From NCBI GenBank assembly GCA_035715365.1, contig DASTLB010000022.1, positions 1-16,241 on the forward strand: a stretch of DNA of 16,241 bases. The letters run 5' to 3'. The notes beneath the pieces are model-generated. The model saw only the letters and a program-made list of their open reading frames with translations, ran no database searches and was not told the origin of the DNA. The DNA comes from Kofleriaceae bacterium (GTDB taxonomy: Bacteria > Myxococcota_A > Polyangia > Haliangiales > Haliangiaceae). Position 1 is the stretch's first letter. Every line of letters starts with the position of its first letter. A program made the translations under genes and the position numbers. Shown in pieces: positions 2,185 to 16,241 of this stretch.

Positions 2185-4038
2185 TCACTCGGTCGATCGC
2201 TTCAAGATCAGGAAGTCGACACGTCGGTTCTTCGCCCACGCGGCCTCGGTGTGCGCCTTCTCGACGGGCTGGGTCTCGCCGTAGCCCTGCGACTCGAGGC
2301 GTTTGTCCTCGACGCCGTGCTCGATCAGGTACTGCTTCACCGCGGCGGCGCGGCGGATCGAGAGGTCGAGGTTGTAGGCGTCGTCGCCGCGCTCGTCGGT
2401 GTGACCGGCGACCTCGACGAGCGTGATGTCCGGGTTGCCCTTCAGCGATGCGACCACGGCGTCGAGGATGTGGAAGCTGTCCGACTTGATCACGGCCTTG
2501 TTGAACTCGAAGTTGATCGGCTCGAGGATCACGAGCTGCGAGCCCTTGTCGATCACCGGGCCGCGATCCGGACAGCCGTCGGTGTCATCGACGCCGTTGT
2601 AGACCTCCTTCTCGTTCGGGCAGCGATCGTTGACGTCGAGGATGCGGTCCTTGTCGTTGTCGGTGTCCGGGCAGCCGTCCTCGTCCTCGAACTTGTCCCA
2701 GTCCTCCGGCGTGTCGGGGCAGAGGTCGTCGACGTCGAGGATCTTGTCGTTGTCGTTATCGTTGTCCGGGCAGCCGTCGTCGTCCTGGAAGCCGTCGTAG
2801 TCCTCCGGCTCGTCGGGACACTTGTCGACGGTGTCGTCGATCTTGTCGCCGTCGCGATCGTTCGCGGTGCCGTCGGGGCAACCGTCGGCATCCTGAAAGC
2901 CGTTGTAGTTCTCCGGGATCAACGGGCACTTGTCGTCGACGTCGAGGATGCGATCGCGATCGTTGTCCGGATCGGGGCAGCCGTCCTCGTCCTCGAAGTC
3001 GTCGCGATCCTCGGGCTCGGTCGGGCAGCGATCGACATCGTCCTTGAGGCCGTCGCCGTCGCGATCGCCGAGGTTCGGCTCGAACACGATGCCGACGAAC
3101 GCGCGCAGGTCGGGGTTCGCGCCCTTGCTCGGTGCGAGCCCGCGGCCGCCGCCGAGCGACAGGTAGCTGTTGCGCGCGAGGTAGAGCTTGACGCCGCCGA
3201 TTGCCTCGAGCGGCTGGTACGCCTCGCTGTTGCCGAGCGGCAGCGCGCCGAACACCTCGGCGACGACATCGAACTTCTGCGGTGTCACCGCGTACGCGAT
3301 GCCGAACCCGAACGGGATCTCCGGGCCGGCGCTGATCGTCTGGTTCGTCGGCGGCGCGCCCATGTCGCCGAGATCGGTGAACGTCGACTCCGGGCGCAGC
3401 CGGATGCCGGCGTTGATCGCCATGCGGAGCCGGCGCTCGCGGCCGAATTCCTTGTCGAGGATGCCGACGAGCTGCGGCGTCAGCTTCTTCTCGCCCATGA
3501 AGCGCTCGGGGCTCGCGGTCGGCAGGAACACGCTCGCGACCACGCCGAGCCCGACGCCGGGCGGCCGGCTCGACTTGAGGAACCGCGTCTTCAGGTGGAG
3601 GCCGGCGTTGCCGATGCCTTGACCGTCGAGCTTGTAGTCCTGATCGTCGTTCGGGTTGTCGAGCGCGCCGAGGTTGTCGGGGCCGCGATCGCCGGACAGG
3701 ATCGTGAGCGGCAGCGACGCGCCGAGCTCGAGATCCGCGGGCCCGAGCTTCAGGCCATACGCGGCGATCAGCGTCGCGGTCACGATGTTGTCGACGCTGT
3801 ACGTCGCATCGCCGCTCTGGAACGCGAGCAGGCGGTGGCCCCACGACAGCGAGCCGAGGCCGAACGAGACCTCGTTCTTGCCGAGCGTCTGCGACGCGTT
3901 GATCGTCAGGTAGCCGCGCGAGTCGATCGCCGGTCGAAACGGCTCGAGTGCGAGGTCGCCGGCGGGTTGGGCCGACGCGCTCGCGCTCAGCGTGCACAGA
4001 ACTGCAGACAGACGAAGGGCCGTGGCCAGGCGTGGCAT
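2185..4038 (-). CDS. OmpA-family outer-membrane protein: N-terminal beta-barrel-like region, about seven thrombospondin type-3 (TSP3) Ca-binding repeats, and a C-terminal OmpA peptidoglycan-binding domain.
   Basis: The start is moved to the internal ATG 4038, which gives the signal peptide MPRLATALRLSAVLCTLSASASA and a good SD (aaaggaacgtccATG). Repeated DxDxDGxxDxxDxCP units occur (e.g. DRDGDGLKDDVDRCP, DNDRDRILDVDDKCP). The C-terminus VEVAGHTDERGDDAYNLDLSIRRAAAVKQYL…NRRVDF is a canonical OmpA domain. Confidence 0.85.
   Translation of the reverse strand: MPRLATALRLSAVLCTLSASASAQPAGDLALEPFRPAIDSRGYLTINASQTLGKNEVSFGLGSLSWGHRLLAFQSGDATYSVDNIVTATLIAAYGLKLGPADLELGASLPLTILSGDRGPDNLGALDNPNDDQDYKLDGQGIGNAGLHLKTRFLKSSRPPGVGLGVVASVFLPTASPERFMGEKKLTPQLVGILDKEFGRERRLRMAINAGIRLRPESTFTDLGDMGAPPTNQTISAGPEIPFGFGIAYAVTPQKFDVVAEVFGALPLGNSEAYQPLEAIGGVKLYLARNSYLSLGGGRGLAPSKGANPDLRAFVGIVFEPNLGDRDGDGLKDDVDRCPTEPEDRDDFEDEDGCPDPDNDRDRILDVDDKCPLIPENYNGFQDADGCPDGTANDRDGDKIDDTVDKCPDEPEDYDGFQDDDGCPDNDNDNDKILDVDDLCPDTPEDWDKFEDEDGCPDTDNDKDRILDVNDRCPNEKEVYNGVDDTDGCPDRGPVIDKGSQLVILEPINFEFNKAVIKSDSFHILDAVVASLKGNPDITLVEVAGHTDERGDDAYNLDLSIRRAAAVKQYLIEHGVEDKRLESQGYGETQPVEKAHTEAAWAKNRRVDFLILKRSTE
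2545..3075 (-). repeat. In-frame tandem coding repeats (TSP3 units of about 70–100 nt) inside the OmpA-family gene.
   Basis: Recurring nucleotide blocks (gtccgggcagccgtcctcgtcctcgaa… / gtcgtcgacgtcgaggat…) correspond to DxDxDG…CPD peptide repeats. Confidence 0.7.
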
Positions 4039-4205
4039 GGACGTTCCTTTGGCAAGCGCGGTCACCGAAATCACGGCGGCCACGCGACGGGGATTGTCCA
4101 GAAAGTGCACGGACAGCTCGTCCGGGTTACACGCGTCGATCTCGCCGGGAGCGCACGCGTTTTGGGGTTGCACGATGGCGCGCGTCCCGCATACCACCGC
4201 ACTCC

Positions 4206-5516
4206 ATGTACAGCACGCTCGACTCGATCGACATCGTCGCGACCGACAAGGCCACCGGCCAGGAGATCTACGTCCAGACCGATCATCGCCAGCGTGACGA
4301 GCTCGAGTCCGAGCCCGAGATCACCGTGCTGTTCGGGCTGACGCGCATCCTCAAGGCGCACGAGTACGCGGCGAACAAGGGTGCGAAGGGACGCGTCGTG
4401 TACGCCGGGTTCGCCGACGATCCGCCGGCGTTCTTGCTCGAGCTGATCGCGGTCGCGGGCGGCGAGTACGAGCGCGCGAGCGATCAGACGTACCTGCCGC
4501 TGCAGGCGTCGAAGCGCACCGCGTCCGAGCTCGCCGACGAGGCGTATCGCGGGCTCGCGAAGCGCGTGCAGGAGCGCGTCGGGCTGAGCGACTGGGCCGC
4601 GGTGCTCAACGCGCTCCAGGCCGAGACGCTGACCGAGCCGCCGGACAAGGACGAGGATCAGATCGGCTACTGGACGCGCGTCGCCGAGCTCGCGGCCGTG
4701 ACCGGTGAGCTGCTGCGCGGCCGCAACCAGGGCAAGTGGGTGCAGATGGCCGAAGCCGACATCCCGTTCGGCTTCCAGTGCTCCGACGGCTCGGTGCTGC
4801 TGCCGACGAACCGTGCCCAGCGGTTCATCGCCGACGGCGAGGACGAGTCGATGTTCCGGCTGATCGAGCTCGACAACGATCGCGAGGCGATCACGAACGG
4901 CCCGCGCACGATGCTGCCGAGCTTGCGCGCGAAGTCCGATGCGCTGCGCGAGAAGATGGTGCACCGCGCGCTGCTGCAGAACGCCGGCGACAACCCCGAC
5001 ATCCCCGTGATCGTGTACGGCAACGACACGCCGCAGTCGTTCGGCATCATGAAGGAGCCGACGACCGAGGACGTCGAGAAGATCCACGCCGAGGCGCTCG
5101 CGAACATCGCGAAGCAGGAAGTCACCGTCGACGACGTCGAGGTCGGTGGCGTCAAGGTGCTCGCGGTCAGCGGCAGCTTCTACGCGACCGAGAAGCTGCT
5201 CGACGTCGCGTTCATGAAGACGCTGCACCGCCGGCTCGGCAACGAGATGCTCGTCGCGAGCGTGCCGCGGCGCGGCCTGATGTTCGTCGCGAACGGCGTC
5301 GATCCCGATCCGCGCCAGGTCGCGACCGTGCTCCGCGTGATGACCGATCACGAGTCGGGCACGACGCGCAGCATCAGCAAGGCGCTGCTGATCGTGATGA
5401 ACGGCGACGTCGTCGGGCACGTCCAGATGCAGACGTCCGAGGACGGCGAGCCGCCGATGCCGCCGCCCGAGAAGAAGAAGCCGAGCTTCTTGCGCCGGCT
5501 GTTCGGTCGCGCGTAA
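4206..5516 (+). CDS. Conserved hypothetical cytoplasmic protein of 436 aa. Its C-terminal third may be DUF1444/YtpQ-like (low confidence).
   Basis: High GC3 and a coding-like frame with no signal peptide. The first ATG not overlapping the divergent gene (4206) gives MYSTLDSIDIVATDK. The C-terminal pattern LLDVAFMKTLHRRLGNEMLVASVPRRGLMFVANG…ALLIVMNGDVVGHV is recalled similarity only. No named catalytic motif was found. Confidence 0.55.
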   Translation: MYSTLDSIDIVATDKATGQEIYVQTDHRQRDELESEPEITVLFGLTRILKAHEYAANKGAKGRVVYAGFADDPPAFLLELIAVAGGEYERASDQTYLPLQASKRTASELADEAYRGLAKRVQERVGLSDWAAVLNALQAETLTEPPDKDEDQIGYWTRVAELAAVTGELLRGRNQGKWVQMAEADIPFGFQCSDGSVLLPTNRAQRFIADGEDESMFRLIELDNDREAITNGPRTMLPSLRAKSDALREKMVHRALLQNAGDNPDIPVIVYGNDTPQSFGIMKEPTTEDVEKIHAEALANIAKQEVTVDDVEVGGVKVLAVSGSFYATEKLLDVAFMKTLHRRLGNEMLVASVPRRGLMFVANGVDPDPRQVATVLRVMTDHESGTTRSISKALLIVMNGDVVGHVQMQTSEDGEPPMPPPEKKKPSFLRRLFGRA

Positions 5517-7287: not shown

Positions 7288-10071
7288 TCACGGCTTGTTC
7301 ACCGCCTGCGGCGCCGCGTTGCCGGTCGGCTTCGGCAGCTTGATGCCGCCGAGCCACGCGCGCAGCTCCGGCTCGAGCAGCTTGCGGCGCGCGATGCACT
7401 GGTCCATGCGCTCGATCGCCTGCTTGACGACGCGCGGTCCGCCCGGCAGCTTGCCGAACGTCTTCGTGACGTAGTCGGCGATCGCGTCGCGCTGGTCGGC
7501 TGCGCACGACCACGTGTAGATGTACGCGAGCCCGGCGAGCGGCCCTGCGGTGTCGTCGGTCGGCACGCGCTTCATCACCTCTTCGTGATGCTCGCGGAAG
7601 AACTGCTGCGCGACCGTGTGATTCATCCGCGTCGTGCTGTTGCCGAAGATGTCGAGCGTCTCGCGAATGTCGAGCTTCGGATCGAGCACGAGCGCGAGCG
7701 CCTGCTTCTGACGCTCGACATCGCGCACCGACGCGAGCGCCGAGAACATCTCGCCGCGCCGGGTGCGATCCGGCTCGGTGTAGACGTCCTTGCGGATCTT
7801 CTCGAAGAACTCGGGCTTCGCATCGACGGCGATGTGCAGCACGAGCTCGCGGATCGACTGCGGCAGATCGCGCCACTTGTCGGACAGCTTCACCGCCTCG
7901 TCGACGAGCATGGGGTCGCGACCGATCCACGCGACCGCATGCAGCAGCTCGAGCCTCGTGATCTCGACGTCGAGCGTGTCCTTCGCGCGCGGCGTGAACC
8001 CGGCCTTGCGCGCTCCGGGGCCAAACGTCGTGCGCACCCACGCCTCGTACTTCGGCAGCAGCTCGTCGGGCACGAAGTCGCGGATCCAGATCGAGAAGTC
8101 GAGCGCGGGCGGTACCGTGAACCGATCGTTGCCGGCGAGCAGCTTCGGCACGAACGACAGCGCGGTCGCCAGCGGCAGCTTGCCGCTCGTTGCGAGATCG
8201 GTGACGTCGAAGTACAGCGTGCGGCGCTCGGTCCACGACAGCTTCGGCCACGCCTCGTCACGCAGCGCGGTGACCTGCGCCGTCGTGTACGGCGAGCGGT
8301 AGTAGCCGCGGCCGTTGACGTTCGGGTGCATCCACCGCGGGCACGCCTTCGTCTTCGACGCCGGCAGCTCGAGCGTGCCGGTCTCCGCCGACAGCAGCGT
8401 GCATGCCTCGCCGCGCGCGCCGCCGCCCTTGTCGTAGACGACGCACACCGGGACGATCCACGGCTTGCCCGCCGGCGGCGTCGGCGAGCCCGGCGGCACG
8501 TAGCGCTTCTGCGCGAGCGCGACGCTCGCCTTGCCGCCCTGGCACGACAGCGTCGCGGTGATCTCCGGCGCGCCCGCCTGCTCGAGGAACGAGGCGAACG
8601 CGGCGTCGACATCCTTGCCCGACGCCTGCGAGATCGACTGCGCGAAGTCGGTCGACGTCGCGTTGCCGTACGCGTGCTTCGCGAGGTGATCGCGCACGCC
8701 CTTCTGGAACACGTCGGCGCCGAGATAGCTCTCGAACATCGCGAGCACGCTCGCGCCCTTGTCGTACGTGATGCCGTCGAACGCGGTCAGGATATCGTCG
8801 GTGCTCTCGATCGGCTGGCGGATCTGGCGCGCGCTGACGATCGCGTCGGCGTTGAGCGCGTCGTTGCGCATCGTCAGCTCGGCCTGATCGTCGCGGTACG
8901 TCGGATCGATCTTCGCCGACGCCTTCGACTCGACCCAGTTCGCGAAGCCCTCGTTGAGCCAGATGTCGTCCCAGTACTTCATCGTCACGAGATCGCCGAA
9001 CCACTGGTGCGCGATCTCGTGCGCCGCGACGACGACGTAGCGGTGCTCGCGCTCCTTCGAGGCCTTGACCGGATCGATCAGGATCAGCCGCTCGGTGAAC
9101 GTGATGAGGCCTGCGTTCTCCATCGCGCCGAACCCGACGGTGAGCGGGATCGACATCAGGTCGAGCTTCTCGTACGGATAGGGCGAGCCGAACCAGTCCT
9201 CGAGTAGCTCGAGCAGCCGCGGCGAGGTCTTCGCGGCCCACGCACCCTCGGCGCGGCGCTTCGCGAGCGTGATCACGCGCACCGGGGTGCCGCGCTTCGT
9301 CTTGCCGGCATCGACGATCTCGAACGGCCCGACGCCGAACGCGACGAGGTACGACGGCAGCGGCTTGGTCTGCGCGAACTCGACGCGCTTCATCGTGTCG
9401 GAGACCTGGCTCTCGCCGGTCTGCGGCGTGTTCGAGACCGCGACGAGCGGCTTCGGGACGTCGAGCGTCAGCTTCCACGGCACCTTGTTGTCGGGCTCGT
9501 CGAAGCACGGAAAGATCCGCCGCGCGTACAGCGCCTCGAGCTGGGTGAACACGTATGACTGATCGGCCACGATCTGCTTGAACGCGCCCGCCGTGTTCAG
9601 CTTGTCGAGCTCGCCCTTGTAGTCGATCGCGAGCGTCCACGCGCCCGGGTCGAGCGGCTTCTGCGCGCGGATCTCGAGGAAGTCCTCGCCCTTCGGCGTC
9701 ACCGCGAGCGCGACCTCGACGCCGGCCTGCTGGGCGACCGCCTTGCGGATCGTCAGCTTGCGGCCGTGCAGCCAGATCACGCTCGAGCGTTCGCTGACCT
9801 CGCCCGCGATCTGGATCGAGCCGTCGAAGTCATCGCGCTTCGGATCGATCACGAGCCGCGCGGCATAGCTCGTCGGCAGAAAGTTGCGCGGCAGGCGCAG
9901 CGTCGGTTGTGGTGGCGCGAGCGCGTCCCCTTGCTTCGTCGGCTTCGGCTCCGCGGTGCCCTCGGTGGCACCGGTCCCGACGGGCGCGGGCACCGTCACG
10001 CTCGGCTTGGGGGGACCGCACGCGACGAGCGACGCGACGAGGGCGACAAGGCAGCGCTGCATGGCGCGCAT
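7288..10071 (-). CDS. M1-family zinc metallopeptidase (aminopeptidase N-like) lipoprotein.
   Basis: 927 aa. Exopeptidase motif FGAMENAGLITF. Zinc-binding motif VVAAHEIAHQWFGDLVT…WLNEGFANW (HExxH-x18-E). N-terminus MRAMQRCLVALVASLVAC has a lipobox (LVAC). Confidence 0.9.
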   Translation of the reverse strand: MRAMQRCLVALVASLVACGPPKPSVTVPAPVGTGATEGTAEPKPTKQGDALAPPQPTLRLPRNFLPTSYAARLVIDPKRDDFDGSIQIAGEVSERSSVIWLHGRKLTIRKAVAQQAGVEVALAVTPKGEDFLEIRAQKPLDPGAWTLAIDYKGELDKLNTAGAFKQIVADQSYVFTQLEALYARRIFPCFDEPDNKVPWKLTLDVPKPLVAVSNTPQTGESQVSDTMKRVEFAQTKPLPSYLVAFGVGPFEIVDAGKTKRGTPVRVITLAKRRAEGAWAAKTSPRLLELLEDWFGSPYPYEKLDLMSIPLTVGFGAMENAGLITFTERLILIDPVKASKEREHRYVVVAAHEIAHQWFGDLVTMKYWDDIWLNEGFANWVESKASAKIDPTYRDDQAELTMRNDALNADAIVSARQIRQPIESTDDILTAFDGITYDKGASVLAMFESYLGADVFQKGVRDHLAKHAYGNATSTDFAQSISQASGKDVDAAFASFLEQAGAPEITATLSCQGGKASVALAQKRYVPPGSPTPPAGKPWIVPVCVVYDKGGGARGEACTLLSAETGTLELPASKTKACPRWMHPNVNGRGYYRSPYTTAQVTALRDEAWPKLSWTERRTLYFDVTDLATSGKLPLATALSFVPKLLAGNDRFTVPPALDFSIWIRDFVPDELLPKYEAWVRTTFGPGARKAGFTPRAKDTLDVEITRLELLHAVAWIGRDPMLVDEAVKLSDKWRDLPQSIRELVLHIAVDAKPEFFEKIRKDVYTEPDRTRRGEMFSALASVRDVERQKQALALVLDPKLDIRETLDIFGNSTTRMNHTVAQQFFREHHEEVMKRVPTDDTAGPLAGLAYIYTWSCAADQRDAIADYVTKTFGKLPGGPRVVKQAIERMDQCIARRKLLEPELRAWLGGIKLPKPTGNAAPQAVNKP

Positions 10072-11458: not shown

Positions 11459-12313
11459 GTGGCCAGCTACGCGTTCCGTATCGTCAACGTATTCACCGTC
11501 GACGGCGACCGGTTCTCCGGTAACCCGCTGTGCGTGTTCGAGGATGCGCGCGGGCTGGCCGATGGCCAGATGCAGGCGCTCGCGCGGCAGATGAACCTGT
11601 CGGAGACGACGTTCGTGCTGCCTCCCGCCGGCGGCGGCGACGCGCACGTCCGGATCTTCACGCCGGGCTTCGAGATGCCGTTCGCGGGCCACCCGACGCT
11701 CGGCACCGCGAGTGTCGTCGCGCGCGGCCGCGACCGCGTCGTGCTCGAGATGCGCGCCGGGCTCGTCGAGGTCACGACGCGCGACGGCGCGTACGAGCTG
11801 CGGACCGCGAAGCCGCCGGCGACACGCGCCGTCGACGGAACGCGCGCCGAGCTCGCGCGCATGCTGAGCTTGCCGGAGGCCGCGATCGCGGGCGAGCCGC
11901 TGTGGGTCTCGACCGGCACCGAACAGCTCGTGATTCCGATCGCGTCGCGGGAGCACGTGCGCGCCGCGAGACCGGTCGTCGACGAGATGCACCGGCTCGC
12001 GACGTCACCGACGCGCGAGGAGGCGATGGCGTATCTGTGGGCCGCGGGCACCGCCGACGATCCGGAGCACCTCGTGCGGTTCTTCTTCACGATCGGCTCG
12101 AGCGTGCTCGAGGATCCGGCGACCGGCTCGGCGTGCGCGAACCTCGGCGGCTACATCGTCGCGACGCGGCACGCGCTGCCGTACCAGGCGACGCTGCGCC
12201 AGGGCGAGGCGGTCGCCCGGCCGTCGCGGCTGCACCTGCGGGTCGACGCGAGTGGTGGGATCTTCGTCAGTGGCGCCGTGATCGAGCTCGGTCGCGGTGT
12301 CGTCGACGTGTAA
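11459..12313 (+). CDS. PhzF-family (phenazine biosynthesis-like, DAP-epimerase fold) isomerase.
   Basis: 284 aa. RIVNVFTVDGDRFSGNPLCVF; ETTFVLPP; FTPGFEMPFAGHPTLG; EDPATGSA. These are the conserved PhzF/YddE family blocks. The start is GTG 11459, immediately after an in-frame TAA. Confidence 0.85.
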   Translation: MASYAFRIVNVFTVDGDRFSGNPLCVFEDARGLADGQMQALARQMNLSETTFVLPPAGGGDAHVRIFTPGFEMPFAGHPTLGTASVVARGRDRVVLEMRAGLVEVTTRDGAYELRTAKPPATRAVDGTRAELARMLSLPEAAIAGEPLWVSTGTEQLVIPIASREHVRAARPVVDEMHRLATSPTREEAMAYLWAAGTADDPEHLVRFFFTIGSSVLEDPATGSACANLGGYIVATRHALPYQATLRQGEAVARPSRLHLRVDASGGIFVSGAVIELGRGVVDV

Positions 12314-12359
12314 CCCGACAGCGACCCCGCTTCACAGCGAACCACCGGGCGCGAACCGT

Positions 12360-12371
12360 GAACGCGCGTTC
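12360..12371. promoter_or_regulatory. Perfect 12-bp palindrome GAACGCGCGTTC, embedded in the longer inverted repeat gcgaacc…gttcgcg. It sits between the PhzF stop and the downstream OMP gene.
   Basis: Read directly from the sequence. It could be a terminator stem for the PhzF gene or an operator for the 12404+ cluster. Confidence 0.4.
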
Positions 12372-12403
12372 GCGGTACGAGCCTTGCCAGAAGCCGCGGC
12401 ATC

Positions 12404-12970
12404 ATGCGCCCGGCCCTGCTCATCCCGTGTCTGCTCACGCTTGCCGCCGGCACCGCCCGCGCGGGCGAGCTCGATCTCAACCTCGGCCTGCAGGCCACGA
12501 CGACCCAGTGGGAGGCCGACCACGGCGGCGGCCCGACGCTGACCGGCACGTGGTTCTTCCGCGACTGGATCGGCGCGAGCTTCACCGGCAAGGAGCAGTA
12601 CGCGACGATCGACGATCGCTACCTGTCGTACTTCAGCGTCAACGCGGTGTTTCGCAAGTCGTGGGACCGCGTGCGCGTCGCCGGCGCGCTCGGGCTCGTG
12701 CACCAGCACGAGGAGCCGGGCACCGTCGTCGATTCGATGCCGGTCGAGTCGCTGTTCGGCGTTGCCGACGGAATCCGGCATCGCGCCGGTTCGCGCGCCG
12801 GGCTGCAGCTCGCGGTGCCGATTCGCGATCGCGCGCACGGCGACTGGTACATCGCGTTCGACCTCGACGCGACCGCCTTCGCCGAGGACACGCGCGGTCC
12901 GCGGTGGATGTCGTCGGCCGGGCTGTCGCTCGGGTTCACGCACGACTTCGCGCAGGCGGCACCGCGATGA
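12404..12970 (+). CDS. Small outer-membrane beta-barrel protein (OmpW/OmpA-like 8-strand candidate).
   Basis: 188 aa. Signal peptide MRPALLIPCLLTLAAGTARAGE. Alternating aromatic/hydrophobic beta-strand pattern. C-terminal …GLSLGFTHDF is beta-signal-like. Confidence 0.55.
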   Translation: MRPALLIPCLLTLAAGTARAGELDLNLGLQATTTQWEADHGGGPTLTGTWFFRDWIGASFTGKEQYATIDDRYLSYFSVNAVFRKSWDRVRVAGALGLVHQHEEPGTVVDSMPVESLFGVADGIRHRAGSRAGLQLAVPIRDRAHGDWYIAFDLDATAFAEDTRGPRWMSSAGLSLGFTHDFAQAAPR

Positions 12971-13332
12971 CGCGGCCGCGGCTGCTCGGCGGCGTGATCG
13001 TCGGCTACCTCGCGTCGGTCGCGGCGTGCATCGAGCCGCAGGGCGACCCGCTCGATCCCGCGGCGTGCCCCGACACCGGCACGACGCTGACGTACGCGAG
13101 CTTCGGCGCCACGTTCTTCGCGGACCACTGCAACGCGTGTCATTCGCAGGCCAGGAACGGCGCGCCGAGCGCGTTCCGGTTCGACACGCTCGACGAGGTT
13201 CGCGCGCACGCGGACCGGATCTACATCCGCGCCGCCGGCTCGAACACGACGATGCCGCCCGGCCCCGACGATCCGCCGCGCGACGAGCGCGATCGGCTCG
13301 CCGAGTGGCTCGCGTGCGGCGCCCCCGAATAG
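12967..13332 (+). CDS. Mono-haem c-type cytochrome lipoprotein, PSCyt1 (Planctomycete cytochrome C)-type domain.
   Basis: The ATG overlaps the upstream stop (ATGA). MTRPRLLGGVIVGYLASVAAC has a lipobox (VAAC). CNACH is a CxxCH haem-binding site. Downstream …NTTMPPG…LAEWLACGA matches the PSCyt1 MPP…WI..GA tail. Confidence 0.55.
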   Translation: MTRPRLLGGVIVGYLASVAACIEPQGDPLDPAACPDTGTTLTYASFGATFFADHCNACHSQARNGAPSAFRFDTLDEVRAHADRIYIRAAGSNTTMPPGPDDPPRDERDRLAEWLACGAPE

Positions 13333-13397
13333 CCGGCTAGTCGATCAGCCACGACCAGCCACGTGCCGCCAACTGTGGGCAGTGCCTGGCCTCGATC

Positions 13398-14870
13398 GTG
13401 GCACGTCCGGTGCTCCTCGCTGGCGGCGTGCTGAGGCTGGCTGCTCTGGTATCCGTGCTCGGGTTCGGGCTCGTCGCGTGCGCGACCGACGGCGACGTCG
13501 CCGGCGAGGATCCGAACGCGGGCCTGCTGCGCGACTTTCTCGACGGCAAGTACGACGCCGCCGGTCACCCGCTGAACGCGAAGGTGATCGAGGCCGAGGA
13601 CGCGTGTCCGTCGGCCGGACCGGTCGGCGACGGCGCGCTCGAGCTCCGCGCGGCCTGCGAGGCCGCGATCCCCGACGGCGCGAAGACCGGCGATCTCGTC
13701 GCGAACGTGCGGCTGCGCGTGCGCACCGCGCCCGAGCGCGGGACGATCGCGACCGTGTCGCTCGTCGACGCGAGCGGCAGCGAGCTCGCGAAGGAGACGC
13801 TGACGGTGTCGCGGCTGCGGGCGCGGGGCGCGTGGATCGATGTCGCGGCGAAGCTCGCGAGCGTGGGTACCGCGGCGCGCGTGCGGATCACGCCGGCCGC
13901 GGGCGCGGTCGTCGACGTCGACTACGTCGAGATCTTTCCGTCGCACTTCGGGCTCGTGATCGCGCCCGGCAGCGGCGTGCTCGGCGACACCGAGCACCTG
14001 ACGTTCGAGGTGCCGCGCTATCGCCGGCTCGAGACGCTCGAGGCCGACGGCGTCGATCTCCTGCCGCGGCTCGACGCGCTCGTGTCGCAGGGTCGCGCGA
14101 CGCGCACGACGACCGCGTTTCGCACGCTGATCGACGTCGCGGTCGCCGACTTGCTGCCGGATCGCGGCGAGGTCGTCGAGCTGCGCGCGAAGGCCGGGAG
14201 CCAGGCGGCGCGTGCGCAGCTCCGCCGTGCGGCGCCGGCATGCAACTTCGAGGGCGATCCGGCCGCGGCGACGAAGGTGCTCGTCACCGGCTTCCAGCCG
14301 TTCCCCGCCGACGGCTGGCACGACAACGTCTCTGGCGTCGCGGTCACCGCGATGAACCCCGCGAGCCTGCGCGACGCGCGCGTGATGCGGCTCGTGCTGC
14401 CGGTCGAGTACGACCGCGCGGCGGCGCAGATCGCCGACGTGATCGCGCGCTGCGCGCCCGACGTCGTGATCAGCTTCGGTCAGGGCGGCGGCGCGATCGC
14501 GCTCGAGCGGACCGCGTACAACCTGCAGGACACCGGCGAGATCGCCGGCGGCGTCCCCGACAACCGCGGCATCGTGCGCGCGGCCGCGCCGATCGACGAG
14601 GCGGCGCCGGCGACGCGCGCGACGCTGCTGCCGCTGCCCGAGATCCGCAGCGCGCTCGAGGCGCTCGGCGAGTCGCCCCAGGACTCGACGGACCCCGGCC
14701 GCTACATCTGCAACAACGTCATGTTCGTCGACATCGCGACGATGGAGGCGCGCGGTGGCCGCGCCGGCTTCATCCACCTCCCGTACACGACGAGCTTCGA
14801 CGACAGCGTGCGCGCGCGCTACGCCAAGGTCGTCGAGGCCGCGATCCAGGCGACCGTCGACGCGCCGTAG
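13398..14870 (+). CDS. Lipoprotein with a novel ~270-aa N-terminal region and a C-terminal pyroglutamyl-peptidase I (peptidase C15, Pcp)-like domain with a complete catalytic triad.
   Basis: GTG start. VARPVLLAGGVLRLAALVSVLGFGLVAC has a lipobox. The C-terminal domain aligns to Pcp: KVLVTGFQPF; PDVVISFGQGGGAIALERTAYN (Glu); DPGRYICNNVMF (Cys); RAGFIHLPY (His). Confidence 0.7.
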   Translation: MARPVLLAGGVLRLAALVSVLGFGLVACATDGDVAGEDPNAGLLRDFLDGKYDAAGHPLNAKVIEAEDACPSAGPVGDGALELRAACEAAIPDGAKTGDLVANVRLRVRTAPERGTIATVSLVDASGSELAKETLTVSRLRARGAWIDVAAKLASVGTAARVRITPAAGAVVDVDYVEIFPSHFGLVIAPGSGVLGDTEHLTFEVPRYRRLETLEADGVDLLPRLDALVSQGRATRTTTAFRTLIDVAVADLLPDRGEVVELRAKAGSQAARAQLRRAAPACNFEGDPAAATKVLVTGFQPFPADGWHDNVSGVAVTAMNPASLRDARVMRLVLPVEYDRAAAQIADVIARCAPDVVISFGQGGGAIALERTAYNLQDTGEIAGGVPDNRGIVRAAAPIDEAAPATRATLLPLPEIRSALEALGESPQDSTDPGRYICNNVMFVDIATMEARGGRAGFIHLPYTTSFDDSVRARYAKVVEAAIQATVDAP

Positions 14871-14944
14871 CTCACGGTCGCCTTACGACGGTGGCACACG
14901 GTTCGCTTCGTGTAAGCACCGTGACGAGTCCTCGCCTGCGCGTC

Positions 14945-15652
14945 ATGAGCTACAACATCCGGTACGGACGCGGTACCGACGACCGGATCGATCTCGAGCG
15001 GATCGCGTCGGTGATCGCATCGTTCGAGCCCGATGTGGTCGCACTGCAGGAGGTCGACGTCCACCGCACGCGCAGCGGCGGGATCGACCAGGCCGCCGAG
15101 CTCGCGCAACGCCTCGGCCTGACCGCGACGTTCGCGCCCGCGATCGTCGAGGACGGCGACTCCCGCTACGGCAACGCGACGCTCACGCGACTTCCGGTGC
15201 TGAGCACCTACCAGCTCGCACTGCCGCACCGCGGTCACAACCGACGCTCGGAGCCGCGGTGCGCGCTCGTGACACGGCTGGCGTGGGACGGCGGCGAGCT
15301 CGACATGGTCAACACGCACCTGTCGATCTTCCCGAGCGAGCGCCCCGGCCAGGTCTCGACCCTGATGAGCGACCTCCACGGCGACGAGGTGATCATCGCC
15401 GGCGACTTCAACTGCACGCCGTGGTCGACCCCGTTCAAGACGCTGTGCTGCGGCCTCACGCCAGCGACGCGTCGCGCACGCACCTGGCCGTCGCGGCTGC
15501 CGTTCGTGCCGCTCGATCACATCCTGTTTCGCGGTCCGCTCGAGGTCGTGCGCTCCGGCTCGTGGGTCACCCCCGAGGCGCGGCGCGCGTCGGATCACCT
15601 GCCGGTGATCGCCGAGCTCGCGAAGCCCGAGGTCGTGCGAGGTGCCGCATGA
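14945..15652 (+). CDS. Endonuclease/exonuclease/phosphatase (EEP) family protein, YbhP-like.
   Basis: MSYNIRYG, VVALQEVD, IAGDFNCTP and SDHLPVIAEL are the canonical EEP catalytic blocks. An in-frame GTG at 14921 is an alternative start. The stop overlaps the next gene's ATG (ATGA). Confidence 0.8.
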   Translation: MSYNIRYGRGTDDRIDLERIASVIASFEPDVVALQEVDVHRTRSGGIDQAAELAQRLGLTATFAPAIVEDGDSRYGNATLTRLPVLSTYQLALPHRGHNRRSEPRCALVTRLAWDGGELDMVNTHLSIFPSERPGQVSTLMSDLHGDEVIIAGDFNCTPWSTPFKTLCCGLTPATRRARTWPSRLPFVPLDHILFRGPLEVVRSGSWVTPEARRASDHLPVIAELAKPEVVRGAA

Positions 15653-16241
15653 CGAAGCTGCTCGTTCCCGGCCTGACCTGCGGCAAGCTGATGACCGCGC
15701 CGCACTCCGGCCTGCTCGTCGACGGTCGCGACTTCTACAAGGCGGTGTACGACGCGTGCTGCAAGGCCGAGCGCACGATCATGATGGCCGGCTGGCAGTT
15801 CGAGACCGAGGTCGAGCTCGTGCGCGGCGAGGACGCCGACGGCTGCGAGCACCCGCCGCAGCTGATCCCGTTCCTGCGCTCGCTGTGCGAGCACAAGCCA
15901 GATCTCCAGGTCTACATCCTCGCGTGGGACGCGTCGCCGGTGTTCGTGTTCGAGCGCGAGCCGCTGCAGCGCTGGAAGTTCCGGCGCCACGGTCACGAGC
16001 GCATCCACTACAAGATGGACAACGCGCACCCGACCGGCGCGAGCCATCACCAGAAGATGATCATCGTCGATCGCGCGATCGCGTTCACCGGCGGCATGGA
16101 TGTCTGCAACTCGCGGTGGGACGACCGCGATCACGCCGCCGAGCAGCCGCTGCGCTGCTCGCGCAACAAGCCGTATCAGCCGTACCACGACGTCCAGGCG
16201 TTCGTGACCGGCGACGCGGTCGACGTGCTGCACGACTGGTT
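15649..16241 (+). CDS. Phospholipase D-family protein, cardiolipin synthase B (ClsB)-like. It is partial and continues past the window's right edge.
   Basis: The first HKD motif HHQKMIIVDRAIAFTGGMDV (HxKx4D…GG) is present. There is no N-terminal TM helix, as in ClsB. It follows an EEP gene with overlap, as in the E. coli ybhP–clsB arrangement. Confidence 0.75.
   Translation, partial: MTKLLVPGLTCGKLMTAPHSGLLVDGRDFYKAVYDACCKAERTIMMAGWQFETEVELVRGEDADGCEHPPQLIPFLRSLCEHKPDLQVYILAWDASPVFVFEREPLQRWKFRRHGHERIHYKMDNAHPTGASHHQKMIIVDRAIAFTGGMDVCNSRWDDRDHAAEQPLRCSRNKPYQPYHDVQAFVTGDAVDVLHDW

Follow-up and report, generated by a model that had tools for sequence, protein, structure and literature searches.

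Can a pyroglutamyl peptidase work outside the cytoplasm? To our knowledge, every characterized pyroglutamyl peptidase I (Pcp) of peptidase family C15 is a small cytosolic enzyme, and the physiological role of these enzymes in bacteria is still vague. The question is raised by a gene in a stretch of 16,241 nucleotides from a Kofleriaceae bacterium (contig DASTLB010000022.1; the whole stretch is called the window below), whose open reading frame (ORF) at 13398..14870 on the forward strand encodes 490 amino acids (aa) plus a stop codon. In its product, a C15 domain sits behind a lipoprotein signal and two binding-type modules, and because of this arrangement an otherwise cytosol-only enzyme appears here to be tethered to the envelope. 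We consider it reasonably probable that the protein acts as an envelope-tethered omega-peptidase removing N-terminal pyroglutamate (pGlu) from extracytoplasmic peptides or proteins. As encoded, it departs from all characterized C15 members in architecture and predicted compartment, and it belongs to a conserved, lineage-restricted family in which a known enzyme is extended to a new predicted location rather than to a new mechanism. The features of the gene are the following:

13398..14870, forward strand: whole gene, 490 aa; the probable true start is GTG 13428, giving 480 aa
13398..13481, forward strand: predicted lipoprotein signal peptide with lipobox L25-V26-A27-C28 (13470..13481), read in the sequence and conserved in homologues
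13512..13580, forward strand: linker motif PNxGLLRDFLDGK(F/Y)DAAGHPLNA, aa 39-61, with the core DGKxDxxGHP, from conservation
13581..13940, forward strand: beta-sandwich module 1, aa 62-181, a modelled jelly-roll like those of carbohydrate-binding modules (CBMs), with the Cys70/Cys87 pair
13956..14225, forward strand: beta-sandwich module 2, aa 187-276, which includes one helix; the invariant Cys282 lies in the linker after it (model and alignment)
14271..14861, forward strand: peptidase C15 (pyroglutamyl-peptidase I-like) catalytic domain, aa 292-488, from profile, structure alignment and fold
14505..14507, forward strand: catalytic Glu370, aligned with Glu81 of the Pcp structure 1aug
14709..14711, forward strand: catalytic nucleophile Cys438, aligned with Cys144 of 1aug
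14775..14777, forward strand: catalytic His460, aligned with His168 of 1aug

The catalytic domain and its active site

By sequence, triad, pocket and predicted fold, the protein belongs to peptidase family C15. Its residues 293-464 match Pfam PF01470 with 88.2 bits against a gathering cut-off of 22.7 (E=9.7e-25), and matches to solved Pcp structures reach E=3.5e-17 and align the motifs around Glu, Cys and His column by column. The family is defined by a catalytic triad that consists of Glu, Cys and His in that order (PMC12445089). An earlier note, made from the sequence alone, had claimed an intact triad and quoted the motifs ALERTAYN (E370), YICNN (C438) and GFIHLPY (H460) together with the lipobox LVAC (aa 25-28), all of which are present. 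It had also named a non-equivalent placement of the triad residues as the outcome that would overturn the claim. In profile and structure alignments to Pcp structures, among them 1aug of Bacillus amyloliquefaciens, E370/C438/H460 fall on the equivalent positions E81/C144/H168, the Glu corresponding also to E79 of 1iof, and the pGlu pocket is conserved as well. Across an alignment of 155 family sequences of 430-700 aa, comprising close and distant members, the triad is kept in 152; in one sequence the Glu is replaced by Gln, and two others have a disrupted C-terminus.

For the pocket, we take residues F10, F13, T45, Q71, I92, F142 and V143 of 1aug, known from structural work on the B. amyloliquefaciens enzyme, to be those that hold pGlu. 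Mapped on the 1aug sequence (100% identical to the PDB entry) and aligned with the target and 14 family members, their equivalents are F299, F302, V336, Q362, V386, Y436 and I437, which outline a hydrophobic S1 pocket. Each of the seven positions is either identical to 1aug or the same as the Pyrococcus furiosus variant, and the pattern persists, with few exceptions, in relatives that are only ~30% identical in the N-terminal region. Moreover, the predicted structure of the catalytic domain shows the Pcp alpha/beta fold. The C15 domain is genuine and, judged from these alignments, looks CATALYTICALLY competent.

Export signal, N-terminal modules and family range

The N-terminus, in full M(A)RPVLLAGGVLRLAALVSVLGFG-LVAC-ATDGD, combines a positively charged n-region (Arg) and a hydrophobic h-region (M(A)R...LRLAALVSVLGFG-LVAC) with a lipobox that, read directly in the sequence, fits the pattern [LVI][ASTVI][GAS]C and makes Cys28 the predicted lipidation site. 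Cys28 is kept in 148 of 148 homologues with a complete N-terminus, and lipobox-like tetrapeptides occur in 108 of 119 close and 28 of 37 distant members, the remainder having mostly variant boxes or truncated N-termini. Both the reading of the sequence and this conservation bear out the exported lipoprotein signal proposed in the earlier note. The true start is probably GTG 13428, because the homologue N-termini favor it and a database protein of identical sequence, a 480-aa 'hypothetical protein' from a Kofleriaceae metagenome-assembled genome (MAG; Myxococcota), starts there; the lipobox is retained with either start, 13398 or 13428.

In addition to Cys28 and the catalytic Cys438, the protein holds four cysteines, C70, C87, C282 and C352, six in total. 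C87, C282 and C352 are found in 155 of 155 sequences and C70 in 150, and cysteine pairs conserved as fully as this fit disulfides formed in an oxidizing compartment; from the positions of the cysteines in the domains we infer the pairs Cys70-Cys87 and Cys282-Cys352. Regarding the final location, Myxococcus xanthus lipoproteins with a Lys at position +2 stay in the inner membrane (PMC3222651). Here the +2 residue is Ala, and in the family as a whole this position is mostly taken by A, T or S and in no member by Lys, so that the outer membrane or beyond seems the more likely location, by extrapolation from another order of myxobacteria.

In the N-terminal region the earlier note had recognized no motif. 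This holds as far as known families are concerned, since searches that admitted E values up to 1 gave no credible Pfam or NCBIfam match within aa 1-291, and the region is a domain family without a present Pfam model. It is, however, not featureless. The linker motif at aa 39-61 is its most conserved stretch, and the DGKxDxxGHP core is kept even in the most distant, ~30% identical members; AlphaFold models the motif at a predicted local distance difference test (pLDDT) score of ~50. Lying between lipid anchor and module 1, this Asp/His-rich stretch could possibly be a site for a partner, for metal or for self-docking. The structure prediction and structural search that the earlier note had proposed gave two beta-sandwich domains, seen both in the full-length model and when aa 28-290 were modelled separately (pLDDT 89). 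Foldseek matches were weak (E 1e-5 to 1e-3, low TM-scores) and comprised CBM6/16/61, MAM-Ig, Lys-gingipain cleaved-adhesin domains and lectins. The modules show a beta-jelly-roll fold as seen in CBMs, without membership of a defined CBM family; their identity to the structural matches is 8-19%. We read these models as generic binding-type modules such as those carried by extracellular hydrolases and proteases, of a fold that would be compatible with a glycan or a protein ligand.

An exhaustive HMMER search of 1.84 billion representatives with aa 28-290 alone retrieved no more than 83 clusters at 50% identity. The full-length matches are mostly 450-520 aa long and seven of ten outliers scanned carry C15, the other scanned outliers being three proteins of 275-410 aa without a Pfam match and one repetitive Big_13 Ig-like protein. 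Based on the match lengths and this outlier scan, the N-terminal region appears to occur almost only as a fusion to C15. In the species genomes of GTDB, relatives that have the N-terminal region as well are encoded at 64 loci, and all but one of these are labelled Myxococcota or bear older delta-/Proteobacteria names, the one being binned as Acidobacteriota. Most of them come from Kofleriaceae/Haliangiales, and members that are 34-40% identical occur in Polyangiaceae, in Bradymonadia and, at 35%, in a Haliangium ochraceum MAG; matches outside this group cover the C15 domain alone and resemble classic Pcp genes. In their source annotations, family members are named 'hypothetical protein' or, automatically, 'pyroglutamyl-peptidase'. 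Four distant members (P0164, P0174, P0182 and P0197; 555-680 aa) have the same architecture plus extra N- or C-terminal segments. The C-terminus of P0164 weakly matches an InhA-like MAM domain, and on this ground extra binding modules appear to have been added in some lineages.

Proposed role and alternatives

In the route that we propose, the precursor would cross the inner membrane via Sec, Cys28 would be lipidated and the signal peptide removed, and the protein would, for want of a Lys at +2, probably travel on to the outer membrane or beyond, stabilized outside the cytoplasm by its two putative disulfides. The beta-sandwich modules could keep the catalytic domain attached to a partner or to a substrate that is a polymer. 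With Glu370/Cys438/His460 and the conserved hydrophobic S1 pocket, the C15 domain would then cut off N-terminal pyroglutamate in the envelope or outside the cell and open the substrate to ordinary aminopeptidases, which might serve nutrient acquisition.

Several observations weigh against this role. All six NCBIfam equivalog models for pyroglutamyl-peptidase I (TIGR00504, NF00967x) score at less than half their cut-offs (best 97.5 versus 201.75 bits), and because these scores lie so far under the cut-offs, the protein is placed in a divergent C15 subfamily; measured by the NCBI threshold, it does not qualify as a pyroglutamyl-peptidase I equivalog. The architecture of the equivalogs, a single domain of ~200-220 aa without export signal, is not matched either by a protein of 480-490 aa with a lipoprotein signal and, N-terminally, ~264 additional residues that form two domains. 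The family also has loops of its own beside the active site, namely a 5-residue insertion (TGEIAGG) before PDN, which is invariant among close members and of low model confidence, a 2-residue insertion after the PF motif (PFPADGW) and a GQAGG loop shortened by 2 residues, and these changes could alter specificity. The gene neighborhood adds no functional support. In close Kofleriaceae relatives, the order is M1 aminopeptidase, SEC-C protein, PhzF and then the C15 gene, but this synteny is gone in members below ~54% identity, and among distant loci only a Ser/Thr kinase recurs, a class that is ubiquitous and very abundant in Myxococcota. We therefore rejected the neighborhood as a functional clue; since the order is lost in distant members, it seems to reflect shared ancestry and inherited gene order rather than an operon, and the C15 gene behaves as a unit of its own.

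The loops, the sub-threshold equivalog scores and the CBM-like fold would all fit an enzyme with the same fold and triad and another substrate, e.g., an N-blocked or cyclized group on a glycoconjugate, a cell-wall or exopolysaccharide-linked peptide or another amide, with the CBM-like module targeting the glycan. Such a shift in substrate appears unlikely to us, as the seven pGlu-pocket positions are all conserved or conservatively replaced, the CBM likeness is one of fold with no Pfam CBM match, and Foldseek finds protein-binding jelly-rolls (MAM, gingipain adhesin domains) about equally well. The earlier note had speculated on cyclized secreted peptides or proteins and on cell-wall-derived material as possible substrates; nothing that was found points specifically to the cell wall. 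A dedicated maturation or regulatory peptidase, taking pGlu off one or a few of the cell's own secreted products (a signal, a bacteriocin or a matrix protein) instead of bulk nutrients, would account for the strict conservation of the extra modules and for the invariance of the aa 39-61 motif, which suggest a specific partner, and for a family so narrowly confined to one lineage. We nevertheless regard it as rather improbable, because distant loci share no candidate substrate gene or other conserved neighbor, and no neighboring protein is marked as bearing pGlu.

Two further explanations were rejected. Zhang et al. 2012 (PMC3482391) count pyroglutamyl-peptidase domains among those of polymorphic and PVC-type toxins, and C15 domains have been reported at the ends of secreted toxins. 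These C15 domains, themselves described computationally, are the only extracytoplasmic precedent that we found, and in the literature searched no C15 enzyme from myxobacteria, and none that is exported or made as a lipoprotein, is described. A toxin-type effector is nonetheless a very improbable explanation for the protein at hand, which shows no domains of the trafficking or repeat type (such as RHS, filamentous haemagglutinin or PAAR) and no adjacent immunity-type gene, and which is a single-copy lipoprotein gene with a stable chromosomal position among close relatives and a uniform rather than cassette-like architecture. The other explanation is a mis-called start, i.e., an ordinary cytosolic Pcp with an N-terminal extension, translated from downstream of the lipobox, as the earlier note had cautioned. 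No clear Shine-Dalgarno sequence precedes either candidate start, and a promoter and terminator scan over 12200-15800 returned nothing. However, in-frame start codons up to the lipobox lie at aa 1, 5, 11 and 20 and the next one only at aa 63, from where the conserved aa 28-62 with Cys28 and the invariant linker motif would be lost, and the paired conserved cysteines argue for an oxidizing compartment. A start downstream of the lipobox is excluded on these grounds, which makes an artefact of annotation extremely improbable.

What would an envelope-tethered pGlu-removing peptidase mean for its hosts? A lipid-anchored C15 family would imply that pGlu-blocked substrates in the envelope or the environment matter to these myxobacteria, which are for the most part predators or saprophytes. 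Predators of bacteria are found in both Polyangia and Bradymonadia. Bradymonabacteria prefer Bacteroidetes as prey (PMC7460792), and most Bacteroidetes proteins exported via signal peptidase I bear pyroglutamate at the N-terminus, where it shields them from proteolysis (PMC5837995, PMC10653852). As a speculative and quite doubtful extension, the protein might be a surface 'uncapping' enzyme of a predator that, held in the envelope and fitted with a module for binding polymers or proteins, strips pGlu caps from prey envelope proteins as a counter-measure to the 'Q-rule'; if so, co-located lipoprotein aminopeptidases, e.g., the M1 enzyme 3.3 kb off, could digest the prey envelope proteins. If active, the protein would add a compartment and an architecture to those known for clan CF, would represent a natural disulfide-stabilized, non-oligomeric pGlu-removing enzyme with an attached targeting module, and would allow testing whether other bacteria counter the pGlu capping of exported proteins, as in Bacteroidota.

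Neighboring genes and known systems

The M1-family aminopeptidase (927 aa; PF17900, PF01433, PF11838) is encoded on the reverse strand at 7288..10071 and starts with a lipoprotein signal (MRAMQRCLVALVASLVAC) ending in LVAC, which makes it a second predicted exported exopeptidase in the window. This fits a shared extracytoplasmic breakdown of peptides, without being evidence for it. Between PhzF and the C15 gene, 12404..13332 (forward strand) holds a gene for a 188-aa protein with a signal peptide and without a Pfam match, followed by one for a cytochrome c lipoprotein of ~110 aa (PF13442, CNACH haem motif), and this pair behaves as an insertion/deletion cassette. Among 78 fetched loci, 14 carry both genes, two more that are cut by the contig end show the cytochrome c, and many close relatives are without the pair; owing to this presence in some close relatives and absence in others, it was rejected as a part of the C15 system. 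In the downstream part of the window (14871..16241), the EEP-family gene (~14945..15652, PF03372, without signal peptide) occurs at none of the 78 loci. In four relatives with called genes that were viewed, an outer-membrane beta-barrel protein gene (minus strand), a metallophosphatase gene and a dCache Ser/Thr kinase gene stand at or near its position. As the EEP gene is absent in relatives and other genes are found there, a rearrangement breakpoint lies just past the C15 stop.

Further away, an OmpA-family protein is encoded at 2185..4197 (reverse strand), with PF00691 at the C-terminus and a long Asp-rich repeat run resembling thrombospondin type 3 (DxDxDGxxDxxD) that probably binds calcium. 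Between this gene and that of a DUF481 outer-membrane protein lies an ORF of ~433 aa without a Pfam match at 4215..5516 (forward strand; MYSTLDSIDIVATDK...). The window is very GC-rich (69.6%), and the frame of the C15 gene has a GC content of 94.5% at third codon positions. Two long ORFs in alternative frames overlap the C15 gene, one of 756 aa at 13382..15652 (forward strand) and one of 518 aa at 13221..14777 (reverse strand); rich in Arg, Ala and Pro, they are artefacts of the 74% GC content that an annotation should leave out. An Rfam search of the window gave no match.

What the protein has in common with the polymorphic and PVC-type toxins (PMC3482391) is a C15 domain whose predicted site of action lies outside the cytoplasm of the producer. 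There, however, the domain is a C-terminal cassette of large secreted toxins with immunity genes, whereas here it belongs to a stand-alone conserved lipoprotein without those. The gingipain Kgp with its cleaved-adhesin domains, the MAM-bearing meprin and InhA and the CBM-bearing hydrolases likewise carry jelly-roll modules, but the likeness is confined to the fold (8-20% identity) and does not extend to a sequence match at family level, and these modular extracellular or surface enzymes belong to a different catalytic class from C15. A precedent for a myxobacterial lipoprotein protease that passes the inner membrane is FibA of M. xanthus, a lipoprotein metalloprotease exported to the extracellular matrix (PMC3222651). 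Its catalytic family is unrelated to C15, and it has an Ala at +7 as matrix signal where the protein described here has a Val, the sorting rules being those worked out in M. xanthus.

The closest relatives by catalytic domain are the classic C15 enzymes of clan CF (MEROPS C15; 1aug/3rnz of B. amyloliquefaciens, 1iof of P. furiosus and 2ebj of Thermus thermophilus), which are single-domain proteins of ~190-225 aa without a signal peptide and work as cytosolic homo-oligomers. Compared with these, the Kofleriaceae protein additionally has two beta-sandwich modules behind a predicted lipoprotein signal and two pairs of conserved cysteines, and differs within the catalytic domain by the indels in its active-site loops and a shorter C-terminal tail.
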